Assembly (NCBI GenBank): GCA_035288845.1
Contig: DATDZB010000005.1
Coordinates: 1 to 55,223 of the forward strand
DNA: 55,223 nucleotides
Reading direction: 5' to 3'
Source of the DNA: Candidatus Nanoarchaeia archaeon
Lineage (GTDB): Archaea > Nanobdellota > Nanobdellia > SCGC-AAA011-G17 > GW2011-AR18
Below are positions 21,957 through 35,534 of the stretch, one piece after another. The translations under genes were made by a program, and so were the position numbers. Each line of letters opens with the position of its first letter. Positions within the stretch are counted from its first letter, which is position 1. Below the pieces are notes generated by a model, which had not been told where the DNA came from, searched no databases, and worked only from the letters and a program-made list of their open reading frames with translations.

Positions 21957-23186
21957 TTATTTATTTCTAATCAAAGCCCAGCCAACTAAATGCCATCTAT
22001 TTCCAATTCTTCTAGAAATTGCCATTTTACTTCCAGGAGCAGCACAAACTGGTCTTCTTAATTTAACTTTAATTCCTTTTTTCTCAAGAGATGTAACAAT
22101 TCCAGCAGTAGTCATTGCATTAACATTTAACATTAATGCTTCAGTTTTTTTAATAGGCTCAACTTTTAATTCTTCTTTACTTCCAATAACATGTTTAAGC
22201 AAATAAGTTTCTAAGATTAATTCTTCATATACACCAGGTAATTTATCAACTAAACCTACAACACTGCCAGCTAATTGATCACCTTTAACAATTGCAGGAT
22301 CTAGATTTGTTTGCATAGCAATAGATCCGCCAGGTTTTACACTTTCAACACTAACACCGCCAGTAACTAAAGATAATATATTAGTTTTGATAGAAATCCA
22401 TTTACTAACACCTTTATCATGAATTAATCTGCCAGGCCTAATTTCAATATTATCATTAACTTTGAAAACTCCTTCTTTTATTGCTCCACCTAAAACTCCA
22501 CCATGTAATTTCATAACATCAGATCCAGGTTTATTAATATCAAAACTTCTAGCAACATACAAAATAGGATCTTTATTCAAATCTCTTTCAGGTGTAGGAA
22601 CAAAAGTTTCTATAGCTTCAATAATATAATTAATATTAATATTATGTTTAGCAGAAACAGGAATTACTGGTGCATTTTCAGCAACACTTCCTTTTGTAAA
22701 TTCTTTTATTTTATTATAATTATTAAGTGCATCATCTCTGCTTACTAAATCAATTTTGTTTTGAATTATAATAATATTTTTTATTCCTAGAATTTCTAAA
22801 GCAGTTAAATGTTCTCTAGTTTGTGGTTGAGGACATTCTTCATTTGCAGCAACAAGTAATAAAGCACCATCAACAATAGCACTTCCACTTAACATTGTTG
22901 CCATTAATGTTTCATGTCCAGGAGCATCAACAAAACTAATTGTTCTTAATTTCTCAGAATCATCAGTTTTTTTTGTAGTATAAATTCCATCTTTAGTTTT
23001 ATAAATTGTAATATCTGCATAACCTAATTTAATAGTAATTCCTCTTTTAAGTTCTTCACTATGACTGTCTGTCCACTTGCCAGAAATTCTTTCTAGTAAA
23101 GTAGTCTTGCCATGATCTACATGTCCAACTAAAGCTACATTAACTAATGGTTGAACATCTTCTGTATCTTTGCCTTTCTTAACCAT
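21957..23186 (-). CDS. eif2g: Translation initiation factor 2 gamma subunit
   Basis: GHVDHGKTT, RGITIKLGY, DAPGHE, QPQTREH, NKID, W.LVGW. Confidence 0.97.
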   Translation of the reverse strand: MVKKGKDTEDVQPLVNVALVGHVDHGKTTLLERISGKWTDSHSEELKRGITIKLGYADITIYKTKDGIYTTKKTDDSEKLRTISFVDAPGHETLMATMLSGSAIVDGALLLVAANEECPQPQTREHLTALEILGIKNIIIIQNKIDLVSRDDALNNYNKIKEFTKGSVAENAPVIPVSAKHNININYIIEAIETFVPTPERDLNKDPILYVARSFDINKPGSDVMKLHGGVLGGAIKEGVFKVNDNIEIRPGRLIHDKGVSKWISIKTNILSLVTGGVSVESVKPGGSIAMQTNLDPAIVKGDQLAGSVVGLVDKLPGVYEELILETYLLKHVIGSKEELKVEPIKKTEALMLNVNAMTTAGIVTSLEKKGIKVKLRRPVCAAPGSKMAISRRIGNRWHLVGWALIRNK

Positions 23187-28840: not shown

Positions 28841-30789
28841 AAAAAGAGAAATTATTAGCAGTTAGTATTATTTTCTTAATATTAGTGCCATTAGTTTTGG
28901 CTGAAAATGAACAAATAAATGATTACAATAATTACAATCAATTAACATTAAAATACAAAATAGAAGGCGGTTTTGAACTGCAAAAAACAGGGTCTAATCC
29001 AAATGTAAAAGAAGCAGAAGCAGTTTTAACATTTTTTCCAAGAAAAGATGATATACAAAAAGTACAAACAATTTCACCTTTTTCAGGACCAAATGCAAAA
29101 ATAACACAAAATCCATCAGAAATTAATTATAAGTGGGATAATCCAGCAATAGGAAACTTCAATTTTGGTGTTGACTCAACAATATCTATAGATAATGGTT
29201 TTGTTATAATTAATGAAAAAGTAAATTTTCCATTAGATGAACCAATAATTAATGAATATACAGAAGCAACAGAATTTATAGATATAAATAATGAAATAAA
29301 AGAGCAAGCTCAGCAAATTGTTGCAGGTGAAGATGATGCGTATTTAGCTTCATTTAAAATGGCAACTTGGATAAATAAAAATATAGAATATAATTTAACA
29401 ACATTAACAGCTGAAGTAGTACAAAAATCAAGTTGGGTTCTAGACAATAGAGAAGGAGTTTGTGATGAAATAACAAATTTATTTATTTCTATGTCAAGAT
29501 CAGTAGGAATACCAGCAAGATTTGTTTATGGAGTTTCTTACACAAATATAGGTTATGATTGGGGTCCTCATGGTTGGGCTGAAGTTTATCTTCCAGATAA
29601 AGGTTGGGTGCCATTTGATGTTACATATGGGCAATTTGGTTGGATAGATCCATCTCACGTTAAATTAAAAGTAAAAGCTGATTCAGGAGATGCAACTGTA
29701 AAATATTCCTGGAAATCTGCAGATACACAGCTAAAAGCAAATGAAATAAAAATGAAAACAAATTTAATTTCAAAAGGAAATGAAATAGAACCGCCAATAA
29801 AAATTACAGTTCATCCAATGATTGAAAAAGTAGGTCCTGGTAGCTACGTTCCAATAAAATTAGAAGTAGTAAATGATAATGAATATTACTTTCCAGACAC
29901 ATTTAGATTAACAAAATCTCCAGAATTAATAGAAGAAAATGTAAAACATGTATTATTAAGACCTAAAGAAATAAAACATGAATATTGGATTTTAAAAATA
30001 CCAGATGAAATAGAAGACAGCTATATTTACACAACAAATATAGAAATAGAAGATCAATTCCATAAAAAAGCAATTAGCAAAATAACATATGGAGAAAATT
30101 ATAAAACAGTTACATTAGATGAAGCTAAAGAAATAGTAGCACAAAATGGAGATAGAGAATTAAACACAATTTCTAGAAATATAGAATTAAAATGTCCAAT
30201 AGATAAAGAGATTTATTCATATGAAGAAAGAAATTTAGTTTGTAATATAAGAAATTCTGGAAATATTCCATTAAAAAATTTAAACATATGTTTTACTAAA
30301 GACTGCCAAGTAACAGATTTGGGAATAGCAGAACAAAAAAATATAACATTCCCAATAAATATAAATCCAGGTGAATACATTTTCAAAGTTAAAGCATATA
30401 ATAATGATGTAAGTATAACTAAAGATGTACAAATAAAAATATTATCTCAGCCAAATTTAAAAATAAAAAGATTAGATTATCCTAAAGAAGTCTCATATGA
30501 AGAAAAAATTGAGTTAAAATTATTATTAACAACAGAAGCTGAAGTAAAAGATTTAAAAATTAAAATCGGCGATGAAGAATTTGAAATTTCAGATTTAAAT
30601 AATTTAGTACAAACAAATTTACCAGTTAATTCAAAAGAACTATACTCAATTAACGAAGAGTCATTTGAAATAGAACTGGAATATAAAGACAAAAATAATA
30701 AAAAATACGAAATAAAAGAAAAATATCCAATAAAAATTAATAATGCACCATGGTATGTTAAAGCACTTTCTTATTTAGGATTAATGTGA
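28837..30789 (+). CDS. Secreted transglutaminase-like protein with Ig-like C-terminal domains
   Basis: Signal peptide; triad GVCDE / HGWAEVY / FDVT. Confidence 0.88.
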   Translation: MKKEKLLAVSIIFLILVPLVLAENEQINDYNNYNQLTLKYKIEGGFELQKTGSNPNVKEAEAVLTFFPRKDDIQKVQTISPFSGPNAKITQNPSEINYKWDNPAIGNFNFGVDSTISIDNGFVIINEKVNFPLDEPIINEYTEATEFIDINNEIKEQAQQIVAGEDDAYLASFKMATWINKNIEYNLTTLTAEVVQKSSWVLDNREGVCDEITNLFISMSRSVGIPARFVYGVSYTNIGYDWGPHGWAEVYLPDKGWVPFDVTYGQFGWIDPSHVKLKVKADSGDATVKYSWKSADTQLKANEIKMKTNLISKGNEIEPPIKITVHPMIEKVGPGSYVPIKLEVVNDNEYYFPDTFRLTKSPELIEENVKHVLLRPKEIKHEYWILKIPDEIEDSYIYTTNIEIEDQFHKKAISKITYGENYKTVTLDEAKEIVAQNGDRELNTISRNIELKCPIDKEIYSYEERNLVCNIRNSGNIPLKNLNICFTKDCQVTDLGIAEQKNITFPININPGEYIFKVKAYNNDVSITKDVQIKILSQPNLKIKRLDYPKEVSYEEKIELKLLLTTEAEVKDLKIKIGDEEFEISDLNNLVQTNLPVNSKELYSINEESFEIELEYKDKNNKKYEIKEKYPIKINNAPWYVKALSYLGLM

Positions 30790-30884
30790 GCCTGGAGGGA
30801 TTCGAACCCCCATTAACCGGTCCCTGGCTAAAATATAGATTATATTTTTGAAGCCGATGGTTCTATCCATTATACTACAGGCCC
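30787..30884 (-). tRNA. trnR-UCG: tRNA-Arg(UCG) with non-canonical intron at 35/36
   Basis: 26-nt intron 30849-30824 forms a strict BHB (GGCU/AGCC helix, 8-bp AT stem); mature loop CU-UCG-GA; A20 Arg identity element. Confidence 0.9.
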
Positions 30885-32181: not shown

Positions 32182-33513
32182 ATGAAAAAAGAGTTTACAA
32201 TTATAACAAATATTCTTCTATTTTTATTATTAGTAAGTTCAGTAAATGCATATGATTTTTCTTTAGTAACTGGAAGAGCAACACTAAATTGTATAACTGG
32301 TGATGAAGCTGCATATCAAAATTGTGTAGCTAGATATGGAACATGTACAAGAAGTTCTTCTGGTGGTGTTGATTTAATTTGTTGGGCTGAAGATGATAAT
32401 AATCAGCCTCAATGTAGAAGAGATTCAGATTGTTCAAATAATCAAAGATGTAGTTCTGGAAATTGTGTAGCAGCACCACAACAACCTCAACCAGTACAAG
32501 AAATAATACCTCCACAACCGCCACCTATTCAACAAGAAGCAACAGTAGTAGCAACTCCAACTACAGAAGTTCCTGGATTAAAATTAGATTTAAACACAGA
32601 AGAAGGAGATAAGGGTCAAGTAATTTTTAGATTATCAGAAGAAACGCAAGATGGATTTACAGTTCAAAAACCTTCATTAAATATAAACTTAGATCCAAAA
32701 ACTGTTGGTGAAATTTCCAAAAAATTAGATGTAAAAACATATTCATATCCATTTTACGCAATAATAATTTTAGTTTTAGCATCTTTAATAACAGTTCTTT
32801 TTATAATTAAAGAAATTGTAAAACCAGGTCCATTTGTTTCATATAAAAATAAAAAAGGGCAAGTTTTTATCATAGCAGCAATAATATTTTCAATTGCAAT
32901 TTATTCTGTAGTAATACCTTACAATACAATAAAAGAATATCCAGGACCAGAAGATTTTAATGAATTAAGTGAAAATTACAAAGCAGAATATCCCAAAGTT
33001 TTTAATTATGCAACTTATGAAGAAGGTGTTGAATTAGGACCTAAATTAGATGAATTTACAAATGTATTTTTAGGTGAAGCAAGAAAAAAAGATCCAAATT
33101 TTGGAGTGTTATATTTATACAAAGATGTAACAGGAAATGTTCATGTGGTTAATACATTAAATCAAAAAGTACTAAATATTAGATTAACACAGATAGGAGC
33201 AGAAGAATTAAGAATTACAGTTCCAAGTAGTACAACAAACGCTGGTGGAGAAATTTGTGTCGAAGGAATTGGTACAGGGTGTACAACCACAAATACAAAT
33301 CAAGGAAATTTTGGTTCCGGATTTGATAATGTTGAAGATTTCCAAAACGTACAGCAATTATGTTTTGAAGTTCCAGGATCAATACCAAGACAATGTCCAG
33401 ATATAAGTGATTTCTCATCCCATTCAACAGTATTAACTCAAAGTGAAATTCCAATAGCAACAATAAGTGGTAGAAATGGAGTAAGAATAGAAATTGAATT
33501 AAGTGAATTTTAA
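32182..33513 (+). CDS. Membrane/surface protein with internal class III (KKGQ) motif
   Basis: Signal peptide, Cys-rich module, PQ linker, TM helix, then KNKKG|QVFIIAAIIF and a pilin-like domain. Confidence 0.75.
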   Translation: MKKEFTIITNILLFLLLVSSVNAYDFSLVTGRATLNCITGDEAAYQNCVARYGTCTRSSSGGVDLICWAEDDNNQPQCRRDSDCSNNQRCSSGNCVAAPQQPQPVQEIIPPQPPPIQQEATVVATPTTEVPGLKLDLNTEEGDKGQVIFRLSEETQDGFTVQKPSLNINLDPKTVGEISKKLDVKTYSYPFYAIIILVLASLITVLFIIKEIVKPGPFVSYKNKKGQVFIIAAIIFSIAIYSVVIPYNTIKEYPGPEDFNELSENYKAEYPKVFNYATYEEGVELGPKLDEFTNVFLGEARKKDPNFGVLYLYKDVTGNVHVVNTLNQKVLNIRLTQIGAEELRITVPSSTTNAGGEICVEGIGTGCTTTNTNQGNFGSGFDNVEDFQNVQQLCFEVPGSIPRQCPDISDFSSHSTVLTQSEIPIATISGRNGVRIEIELSEF

Positions 33514-34379
33514 CGTCTTCTAGTAACAACAATAATTGCATTATCTGAAGTTCTAGCGCCATCTGGATCTACAGAAACTTTTGTTAAATTATAAGTACCG
33601 GGTTCGGACCAACTTAAACTTACACAAGGTCCTGATTGAGAAACATCGGGCCAATTATCAGCATCAAAATAAGTCTCATGATTAATAGAAGCTCCATCCG
33701 GATCATAATTAGAAAATGGTGTACTTGAATGTCCAGGAGCGTAAGGACCATCTCTACAAGGATGACTTCCACATGCACCATAAACAAAACAATAAGGAGT
33801 ATCAGTTGTTAAATTCATAACATCTGGTCCAGCATTTGCAATAGGAGCAACATTAGCCACAACTTGTAAAGGAGCATTAGTCATTGTTCTAGCACCATAA
33901 TTATCAGTAGCAGAGGCAGTTACCATATAATTACCCATATCAGGTAAAGTTACATTAGTTTTACAAGCACCGTTGCTATTATACATCATACGACCATTAG
34001 AATCTCTAACTTCCCAAGTGCATCTAACAAGATTGCTATCACCATCAGGATCAGTTACTTCAGCTTCTAATTCTGAAGGTCTATTTCTTCTAAATTGAAT
34101 AGGACCACTAGGCATAGGATTTCTAATTTTAATAGTTGGAGCTATATTTGCAATACCTGCATCCATAGAATTAATTCTCACATCAGGTGCATAACCTGCA
34201 TCTAAAGGAGTAGGAACACCAGCATCTGGAGCTTTATAACCAGAATCGTGAACATTAGGCATACTAGAATCTAAACTAGGAGTATTATTAGTATTAGAAT
34301 TATCAGGTTCCATAGAAACCATTTCAGTTCCACAAGCCCCAACTACTAAAGCTAGTGGTAATATTGTTTTTACACCCAT
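33510..34379 (-). CDS. Lipobox protein with PKD/Ig-like domains
   Basis: MGVKTILPLALVVGA|C; DAG-repeat linker; DPDG, APIANAG and GTYNLT PKD-like motifs. Confidence 0.75.
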   Translation of the reverse strand: MGVKTILPLALVVGACGTEMVSMEPDNSNTNNTPSLDSSMPNVHDSGYKAPDAGVPTPLDAGYAPDVRINSMDAGIANIAPTIKIRNPMPSGPIQFRRNRPSELEAEVTDPDGDSNLVRCTWEVRDSNGRMMYNSNGACKTNVTLPDMGNYMVTASATDNYGARTMTNAPLQVVANVAPIANAGPDVMNLTTDTPYCFVYGACGSHPCRDGPYAPGHSSTPFSNYDPDGASINHETYFDADNWPDVSQSGPCVSLSWSEPGTYNLTKVSVDPDGARTSDNAIIVVTRRR

Positions 34380-34474: not shown

Positions 34475-34562
34475 TGAGCCCGGAGGGATTCGAACCCCCA
34501 TCCGCAGGTATCTACAAAAAATACCGTAGCCCGCTATTCTATCCAGGTTATACTACGAGCCC
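34475..34562 (-). tRNA. trnR-ACG: tRNA-Arg(ACG) with canonical 37/38 intron
   Basis: GCGGG-CU-ACG-G|14-nt intron 34523-34510|A-CCUGC; BHB central helix CUAC/GUAG; GGAUA D-loop (A20). Confidence 0.92.
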
Positions 34563-34652: not shown

Positions 34653-35534
34653 ATGACAATACCAGATTTTGGAAATGTAAATCATCTTCTTACTCAGAAA
34701 AAGCTTGAAAAGTTATATCGAGACTTAGAAAAAAATGAAGGTGGTCTTTTAGCAATGGAATGTGAATATGGTCTATCTTGGCTATCAAGGAACGATAGTC
34801 ATCGTAGCATGATTCATTTCGGGAAAATTACTTCACCATATTTAGAAAGGGTTGAAAATAGAGAAGCAAAAAATCTTCCTCCAATTCTTCAAAATAAATT
34901 AAGAGGATTTAGTTTACTTCCAGCTCCAACTCTAAAAGCAAGAGGAATAGTACAATTAGGAAAAATTAGTTTAGAAGATAAAATAGAAGTAAGAAATGCT
35001 GTGAATTTACCAATTTTACAATTTGCAGGAGAAAATACTTTATTTGGTACAGCAGAGCTACTAGAAGTAGAAGATCCAAAAGAATGGGCAGAGAATTTTA
35101 GAAGATTAAACCTTTATGTAGGTGATGAACAAGTAATAGGTTTCTTAGAAGCTAAAGTTGAGTATAATACCCATAACTACGGAAAAAATGCACCTAAACT
35201 TTATGAAGCATTAAAAGAATTGACAAACGAAGATGCACTATCAAGAAAATATTTTGATAAGAAAAAAGAACAACTAGAAAGAGAAAAAATGAGAGAAATA
35301 GGAGAAATGATTTTAAGATTATTTAATAGATATGAGAGTTTAGAAGGGAAAGATTCTAGCGAAAGAAGGAAATCAGAAAAAATGATAAGGGAAGGAATAA
35401 TAAATCTCATTGATCTTGGTGGTCATAAATATAGCTCACCTATAAGTTCACAAAAAGCTTCAGGAATTGTAATTATACCAGATGTTTTCTTAAGAGATTT
35501 AGCTGAAATATATAAAATACCAATTCCAGAATAA
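34653..35534 (+). CDS. Hypothetical protein
   Basis: 293-aa ORF; no recognised motif. Confidence 0.65.
   Translation: MTIPDFGNVNHLLTQKKLEKLYRDLEKNEGGLLAMECEYGLSWLSRNDSHRSMIHFGKITSPYLERVENREAKNLPPILQNKLRGFSLLPAPTLKARGIVQLGKISLEDKIEVRNAVNLPILQFAGENTLFGTAELLEVEDPKEWAENFRRLNLYVGDEQVIGFLEAKVEYNTHNYGKNAPKLYEALKELTNEDALSRKYFDKKKEQLEREKMREIGEMILRLFNRYESLEGKDSSERRKSEKMIREGIINLIDLGGHKYSSPISSQKASGIVIIPDVFLRDLAEIYKIPIPE

Follow-up and report, generated by a model that had tools for sequence, protein, structure and literature searches.

An archaeal tRNA-Arg gene with an ACG anticodon appears to stand in place of tRNA-Arg(GCG) in a clade without a recognisable TadA

The whole stretch of DNA analysed in this work (55,223 nucleotides, referred to below as the window) carries a tRNA gene on its minus strand at 34475..34562, in a 273-nt gap between the open reading frames 33510-34379(-) and 34653-35534(+) of the ORF list. 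An archaeal RNase P RNA was also detected in the window by the Rfam search. The tRNA precursor is 88 nt long, and the spliced product comprises 74 nt. Exon 1 (34524..34562) covers tRNA positions 1-37, including A20 (34542) and the anticodon nucleotides A34, C35 and G36 (34527, 34526 and 34525, respectively). Exon 2 (34475..34509) covers positions 38-73, i.e., A38, the CCUGC strand of the anticodon stem, the variable loop, the T arm, the 3′ strand of the acceptor stem and the discriminator base A; a CCA end is not encoded. Read along the minus strand, the precursor starts with GGGCUCG UA GUAU AACCUGGAUA GAAU A GCGGG CUACGG, followed by the intron UAUUUUUUGUAGAU and then by A CCUGC GGAU GGGGG UUCGAAU CCCUC CGGGCUC A. 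When parsed by hand, this sequence yields an acceptor stem GGGCUCG/CGGGCUC, an anticodon stem GCGGG/CCUGC, a loop C32 U33 A34 C35 G36 G37 separated by the intron from A38, a 4-nt variable loop, and a T arm GGGGG-UUCGAAU-CCCUC ahead of the acceptor strand and discriminator. The D stem bears one A12-A23 mismatch in sequences of the type found in the study genome (G000), and the T loop, G18 G19 and U8, conserved features of a cloverleaf, are all present.

The first-pass annotation described this gene as a complete cloverleaf with an archaeal bulge-helix-bulge (BHB) intron at 37/38 and the anticodon ACG at 34527-34525, and three procedures confirmed it. The Rfam tRNA model RF00005 matched 34475-34562(-) from end to end with 34.4 bits (cut-off 29), and ARAGORN run with introns allowed reported tRNA-Arg(acg) with a 14-nt intron. 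Our own BHB scanner, which searches for a 4-bp helix between two 3-nt bulges and cuts after the second bulge base, gave its best score to the 14-nt intron 34510..34523 between positions 37 and 38, the canonical site. This BHB consists of the helix CUAC/GUAG with bulges GG|U and AU|A, an outer helix provided by the 5-bp anticodon stem, and an inner helix of 1 bp. The intron sequence GUAG (34515-34512) pairs with C32-U33-A34-C35 (34529-34526), and the partner of A34 in the splice helix is U, just as had been proposed. With both a cloverleaf and a BHB, the gene belongs to the intron-bearing archaeal tRNA type.

An anticodon of this kind might be an artefact produced by an error at 34527, by bacterial contamination, or by wrong placement of the intron. 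The gene comes from a single metagenome-assembled genome (556 kb in 14 contigs, 28% GC) with an estimated completeness of 70%; ARAGORN with default settings gave a different, truncated call (a tRNA-Gln, discarded as a mis-call), and no cloverleaf emerged when the single sequence was folded to minimum free energy (z = -1.0), a result that carries no information for a transcript rich in AT and free of modifications. Against this stand an estimated bin contamination of 0.48%, an archaeal BHB intron in an archaeal syntenic setting, and the hand enumeration of all 14-nt excisions from the 21-nt loop region, every one of which leaves A34 in place. The same A is present, moreover, in 17 other independent assemblies, and in six of them the gene has no intron at all. 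An artefact is thus extremely improbable.

The determinants recognised by ArgRS in bacterial and yeast systems are C35, G36 or U36, A20 and A/G73. The gene possesses C35, G36, A20 and A/G73 and has no long variable arm, and these elements are invariant in an alignment of the 18 spliced ACG orthologues (alignment A2), by which it can be assigned to arginine. The orthologues were collected from metagenome-assembled bins in two ways. A BLAST search with the 88 nt against 60 relatives revealed full-length orthologues in 11 members of the family, ten of which read CUACGG at the anticodon; the remaining one, G017, reads CUUCGG. In a pattern survey of 240 genomes of the order, the signature GGCUACGG was found in 15 of the 27 family genomes, among them the second genome of the genus (G001), and also in G208, G209 and G127, three genomes classified in other families, which makes 18 ACG genomes in the order and places the CUACGGA loop in 17 genomes besides the one studied. 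ACG matches outside the signature were about as frequent as those of a reversed-pattern control, and the three that we inspected (in G066, G081 and G112) lay in non-tRNA DNA. Six of the ACG genes (in G001, G009, G019, G020, G208 and G209) are intronless, so that the reading of the anticodon does not depend on where the intron is placed.

Alignment A2 clearly shows the marks of a maintained RNA structure. The loop CUACGGA is invariant, 97.6% of the stem cells are paired, double changes occur in 13 of the 21 pairs, and all four stems covary; none of 500 shuffles matched this covariation, and the slid controls were likewise far off. In the 12 intron-bearing orthologues, the central helix of the BHB is paired in 87.5% of cells. 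The G017 orthologue (L010:1501-1587), compared with that of G005 (L003), has exchanged A34 for U34, giving the anticodon UCG, and its intron has changed from GUAG to GAAG; this matched change indicates that the splice helix is under selection. Taken together, the data argue that the gene encodes a working tRNA under selection. They also bear out the initial view of the gene as native to its genome and not a contaminant, which had been based on the intron and to which the covarying stems and the position of the gene at the GCG locus (see below) can now be added.

A further intronless tRNA-Arg(ACG) was noticed on the 271-kb JGI metagenome contig Ga0208597_1000001 (L221:1930-2040, minus strand); its anticodon and T arms are identical, and its acceptor stem is different (GCCCCGG). 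This DNA contig was the sole match in one metagenome scan for spliced forms with A or G, which returned no RNA-derived sequence.

Of the 240 genomes of the order, about 100 match the same narrow pattern with G34, so that GCG is the usual state there. Within the family, 15 genomes carry ACG and eight carry GCG (G006, G008, G012, G013, G015, G018, G021 and G024), none carries both, and four carry neither; an apparent GCG match in one ACG genome (G011) turned out to be coding, non-tRNA DNA. A scan of the 556-kb study assembly for a GCG anticodon arm plus T arm returned nothing, and the ACG gene was found. A third Arg-like tRNA, located on contig C2, was considered as the missing GCG gene and proved to be a tRNA-Trp(CCA) with a C/D-box-like intron.

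In genomes of both kinds, the [A/G]CG gene is followed 0.1-4 kb downstream by a tRNA-Arg(UCG) gene of the same orientation. In the window this partner occupies 30787..30884 on the minus strand, 3.7 kb downstream of the ACG gene, as established with Rfam and the BHB scan. Its 26-nt intron (30849-30824) resides at the non-canonical site 35/36, inside the anticodon, and its removal leaves the loop CUUCGGA; the only good BHB in this gene has the helix GGCU/AGCC, bulges UC|A and AG|G, and an 8-bp inner helix. ARAGORN reported a tRNA-SeC(tca) at 30787..30884, a mis-call that may be confused with a UGA-decoding tRNA.

The conserved position suggests that tRNA-Arg(ACG) replaces GCG at the same chromosomal site. 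Like a standard archaeal tRNA-Arg(GCG), of which it is the positional orthologue, it has the corresponding body, identity elements and intron type, and differs in having A34 along with an invariable C32 and G31-C39. We also considered an origin of the ACG gene from a duplicated UCG gene, with which it shares G30 G31 C32. Synteny makes orthology with GCG the likelier origin, with the reservation that the bodies of arginine tRNAs evolve in concert within one genome. We regard tRNA-Arg(ACG) as a genuine, functional and vertically inherited archaeal gene in which the wobble base has presumably changed from G34 to A34. As for the loop context, all 18 ACG tRNAs have C32 and the closing pair G31-C39, like the UCG tRNAs, whereas U32 is found in seven of the family's eight GCG tRNAs, usually together with C31-G39. 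This difference would stem either from a retuning of the loop context at the origin of A34 or from copying of the arm from the neighbouring UCG gene.

These results should be viewed in light of the generally weak detection of tRNA genes in this group, which affects the entire analysis. Standard finders recovered only 13 tRNAs in the study genome, 22 in G005 and 27 in G014, because many genes in these genomes contain two or three BHB introns, also at non-canonical positions. A GCG gene with odd introns could therefore be hidden in some genomes, and its absence is not fully certain in every one. On multi-intron genes ARAGORN gives wrong anticodons and often a false A34. This applies to the A34 calls obtained with it in relatives (Phe aaa, Ser aga, Leu aag, Asp atc, Ile aat), all of which are intron mis-parses: in two complete relatives, BHB-guided splicing converted such calls into Lys CUU, His GUG, Phe GAA and others. 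The other family boxes that could be resolved retain G34 (Thr GGU, Ala GGC, Gly GCC). A generally rewired decoding strategy, as raised in the first-pass annotation, is not supported by these data. That the switch is confined to the arginine box is explained by the general strong-box argument alone.

The history of the two anticodons was traced on a tree of a single protein, EF-2, from 29 genomes. Ten ACG genomes form one group with G017 nested inside it; the GCG-bearing G013 joins this group in an unresolved fork, and the GCG-bearing G015 is placed just outside, the clade of the ACG group, G013 and G015 being supported at 97/94. The ACG genomes G009 and G019 lie apart from the main group, and G208 and G209 come from a different family, in which the remaining genera carry GCG. 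The ACG/GCG label is strongly clustered (0 of 500 shuffles equal), and at least three label changes are required on this single-gene tree. In our interpretation, G was replaced by A independently on at least two or three occasions, or on fewer occasions with some reversions. GCG occupies the locus in the sister lineages and in most of the order, which points to an ancestor with G34. Among the ACG genomes, EF-2 identity can be as low as about 66-75%, and the retention of ACG over such a divergence (about 25-35%) means that it is not a transient state. G017 is the sister of the ACG-bearing G005, which indicates that its change from A34 to U34 occurred later than the origin of ACG.

Some of the EF-2 reading frames (L214, L216, L217, L218 and L201, from G001, G003, G017, G011 and G012, respectively) are about 1200 aa long instead of about 730. 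The match to the protein model begins in them near model residue 31, some 470-500 residues into the frame, which looks like an intein or another insert near the N-terminal GTPase motif.

In bacteria and eukaryotes, A34 of tRNA-Arg(ACG) is converted to inosine by TadA or ADAT2/3, and the archaeal gene resembles these tRNA-Arg(ICG) genes in its anticodon, in the loop C32 U33 A34 C35 G36, and in the absence of GCG wherever ACG is present. The resemblance ends at the enzyme: no TadA/ADAT2-type deaminase was found alongside, and the ACG anticodon is known here from genes. With the TadA model NCBI NF008113 (cut-off 150 bits), none of the 240 genomes scored above the cut-off. Weaker TadA-like proteins, with 34-101 bits, were present in 32 genomes, comprising one of the 18 ACG genomes (G009, 71 bits) versus 31 of the 222 others; most of these others, e.g., G012, carry GCG. 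As TadA-like proteins are not enriched in ACG genomes, they show no association with A34.

A broader search was made for the deaminase fold. The models PF00383 and PF14437 matched in all 12 control genomes where matches were expected, and gave no match in G000, G005, G010, G011, G014, G019, G020 and G023, i.e., in eight of the family's 15 ACG genomes; among these, G005 and G014 are rated 100% complete. In the study genome, an unfiltered local HMM search combined with a zinc-motif scan of all six frames likewise revealed no deaminase. The ADAR/ADAT1 family PF02137 gave no matches, its control being silent too. The deaminase-fold genes of the other ACG genomes comprise ComEB-type dCMP deaminases (one of them beside nrdR), kinase-dCMP deaminase fusions, RibD-like proteins, a cytidylyltransferase-deaminase fusion and a tandem cytidine deaminase. 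High scores for MafB19-deam (PF14437), which could suggest TadA, were traced to kinase-dCMP deaminase fusions of about 345 aa. Such dCMP deaminase fusions are located at L032:1420-2448 (G003), L034:1420-2457 (G004) and L050:1003-1824 (G016), and their partner domain is either an N-terminal nucleotide-kinase-like part (in proteins of about 345 aa) or a cytidylyltransferase (273 aa).

Could A34 nevertheless be converted to inosine by an unrecognised deaminase, with a divergent CDA fold or another fold, so that the resulting ICG would read CGU, CGC and CGA? The absence of a recognisable family does not amount to the absence of the activity, and the long retention of ACG over the EF-2 divergence given above would fit such an enzyme, as would the C32-U33-A34-C35-G36 loop, the sequence that TadA recognises in bacteria. 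To our knowledge, the enzyme that makes m1I57 in archaea has yet to be identified. Elsewhere in cellular life, a conserved ACG that replaces GCG is accompanied by I34 (PMC8007984). On the other hand, a CDA-fold gene is missing from more than half of the family ACG genomes, those rated 100% complete among them, the TadA-like proteins are not enriched where ACG occurs, and unmodified ACG works in other organisms (PMC10454642, PMC3711424). The retention of the UCG tRNA beside ACG also means that reading of CGA by I34 is not needed. We therefore consider deamination of A34 possible but unlikely; that it is performed by an enzyme outside the recognised tRNA-deaminase families, as an independently invented form of ICG decoding, seems to us slightly less likely still.

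Codon usage in the study genome was determined from 430 long ORFs (144,170 codons). Arginine is encoded there by CGU 225 times, CGC 9, CGA 53, CGG 10, AGA 4892 and AGG 485, so CGU makes up 76% and CGC 3% of the CGN box, and CGN codons occur at 2 per 1000 codons versus 37 per 1000 for AGR. The share of CGC among CGY is 0.04, compared with 0.035-0.05 in the boxes that retain G34 tRNAs. CGC is thus as rare as NNC in every four-codon box, which reflects mutation bias and is no specific mark of A34. The sample from the relatives was small (1.7-16 kb of loci per genome, unverified ORFs included); in it, CGN codons amount to 3.6 per 1000 in ACG versus 11.9 in GCG genomes of the family, and CGC to 0.15 versus 0.33 of CGY. 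This sample suggests that the ACG genomes are more AT-rich and use fewer CGN codons and less CGC than the GCG genomes of the family.

Such a low demand for CGN could also mean that the cell can do without the ACG tRNA or makes little use of it; G34A would then be a near-neutral change under AT pressure, and UCG would read all CGN codons through four-way wobble. The conversion of the gene into UCG in G017, inside the ACG clade, fits this explanation, as it implies that the decoding roles of ACG and UCG overlap. A dispensable gene would be expected to decay, yet across 18 genomes the stems covary and none of the 7 loop nucleotides varies; the compensating intron change in G017 shows that splicing and function were maintained, and at least two or three lineages have acquired or retained A34. 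On balance, we find this explanation improbable.

The reading that we prefer is that A34 stays unmodified and forms a Watson-Crick pair with CGU, with UCG covering CGA and CGG and no deaminase being involved; this is probably the case, judging from the genomic evidence. The switch could have proceeded as follows. Under AT pressure, the CGY codons of AT-rich reduced DPANN genomes would have become almost entirely CGU, after which a change from G34 to A34 would have swapped a G-U wobble for a Watson-Crick pair with CGU at little cost. The neighbouring tRNA-Arg(UCG) would read CGA and CGG, and the rare CGC would be read either through a weak A-C pair, made tolerable by the two strong pairs of C35 and G36, or by the same tRNA-Arg(UCG). 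Without a deaminase, the mature tRNA would keep A34, and the A34 state would have been reached from a G34 ancestor and not through the loss of TadA. The first-pass annotation had named the right two alternatives, an unrecognised wobble deaminase or an unmodified A34, and the evidence leans towards the latter; its further suggestion of superwobble is not needed, since a tRNA-Arg(UCG) is encoded 3.7 kb away and CGU accounts for 76% of CGN.

Unmodified A34 is known to function in other organisms. In a viable B. subtilis tadA deletion, the unmodified ACG decodes the entire CGN box, and frameshifting at CGA is increased (PMC10454642); Mollicutes without TadA use an unmodified tRNA-Arg(ACG) (PMC3711424). 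Orthogonal tRNAs with unmodified A34 read mainly U-ending codons, and those ending in C and G too if the first two pairs are G-C (PMC11066159). The archaeal genomes studied here are similar to Mollicutes (PMC3711424) and to the B. subtilis yaaJ/tadA deletion (PMC10454642) in that ACG is encoded and both TadA and GCG are lacking, and to Mollicutes also in having an AT-rich reduced genome (28% GC, 0.56 Mb at 70% completeness) with few CGN codons. In contrast to those bacteria, which lost the enzyme from an I34 system, the archaeal lineage would have had a G34 ancestor and never TadA; it differs further in belonging to Archaea, in the BHB intron and in keeping the UCG partner, and we infer its unmodified state from genomic data. 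Yeast mitochondrial tRNA-Arg(ACG) and Mycoplasma tRNA-Thr(AGU) provide similar cases of A34 in a rarely used four-codon box of an AT-rich reduced system (PMC11066159). In yeast mitochondria ACG is the sole reader of its box, whereas UCG is present here, so that four-way reading by ACG is not required.

Archaea are described as lacking both ANN anticodons and an A34 deaminase (PMC8007984, PMC11066159), in agreement with the first-pass annotation, and a recent preprint counted 3 ANN anticodons among 10,517 archaeal tRNAs (10.64898/2026.05.15.725136). Ancient and strong selection against unmodified A34 has been deduced from this absence. In the present case, an archaeal clade keeps tRNA-Arg(ACG) instead of GCG, apparently with at least two origins and without TadA. 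A deaminase-free tRNA-Arg(ACG) as such is known from Mollicutes and mitochondria; what is new is its occurrence in Archaea, its origin from G34, and its conservation across a clade. If A34 is unmodified, a change from G34 to A34 would be naturally tolerated or favoured in archaea under AT pressure, and ACG would be reachable without a prior deaminase, which bears on the beginnings of ICG decoding in bacteria and eukaryotes. If A34 is converted to inosine, there would be an unknown enzyme to find, and Archaea would have gained its first case of wobble inosine.

The tRNA-Trp(CCA) gene mentioned above lies outside the window, on contig C2 of the study genome at about 21960-22126 (minus strand), and has two introns, one interrupting the anticodon loop and the other the T loop. 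The anticodon-loop intron contains the C/D-box-like motifs GAUGAG...CUGA...AAUGAUC...CUGA, as does the known guide RNA in the intron of euryarchaeal tRNA-Trp. The same arrangement of the tRNA-Trp gene was observed in G001, G015, G025 and G012 (L021, L019, L004 and L027, respectively).
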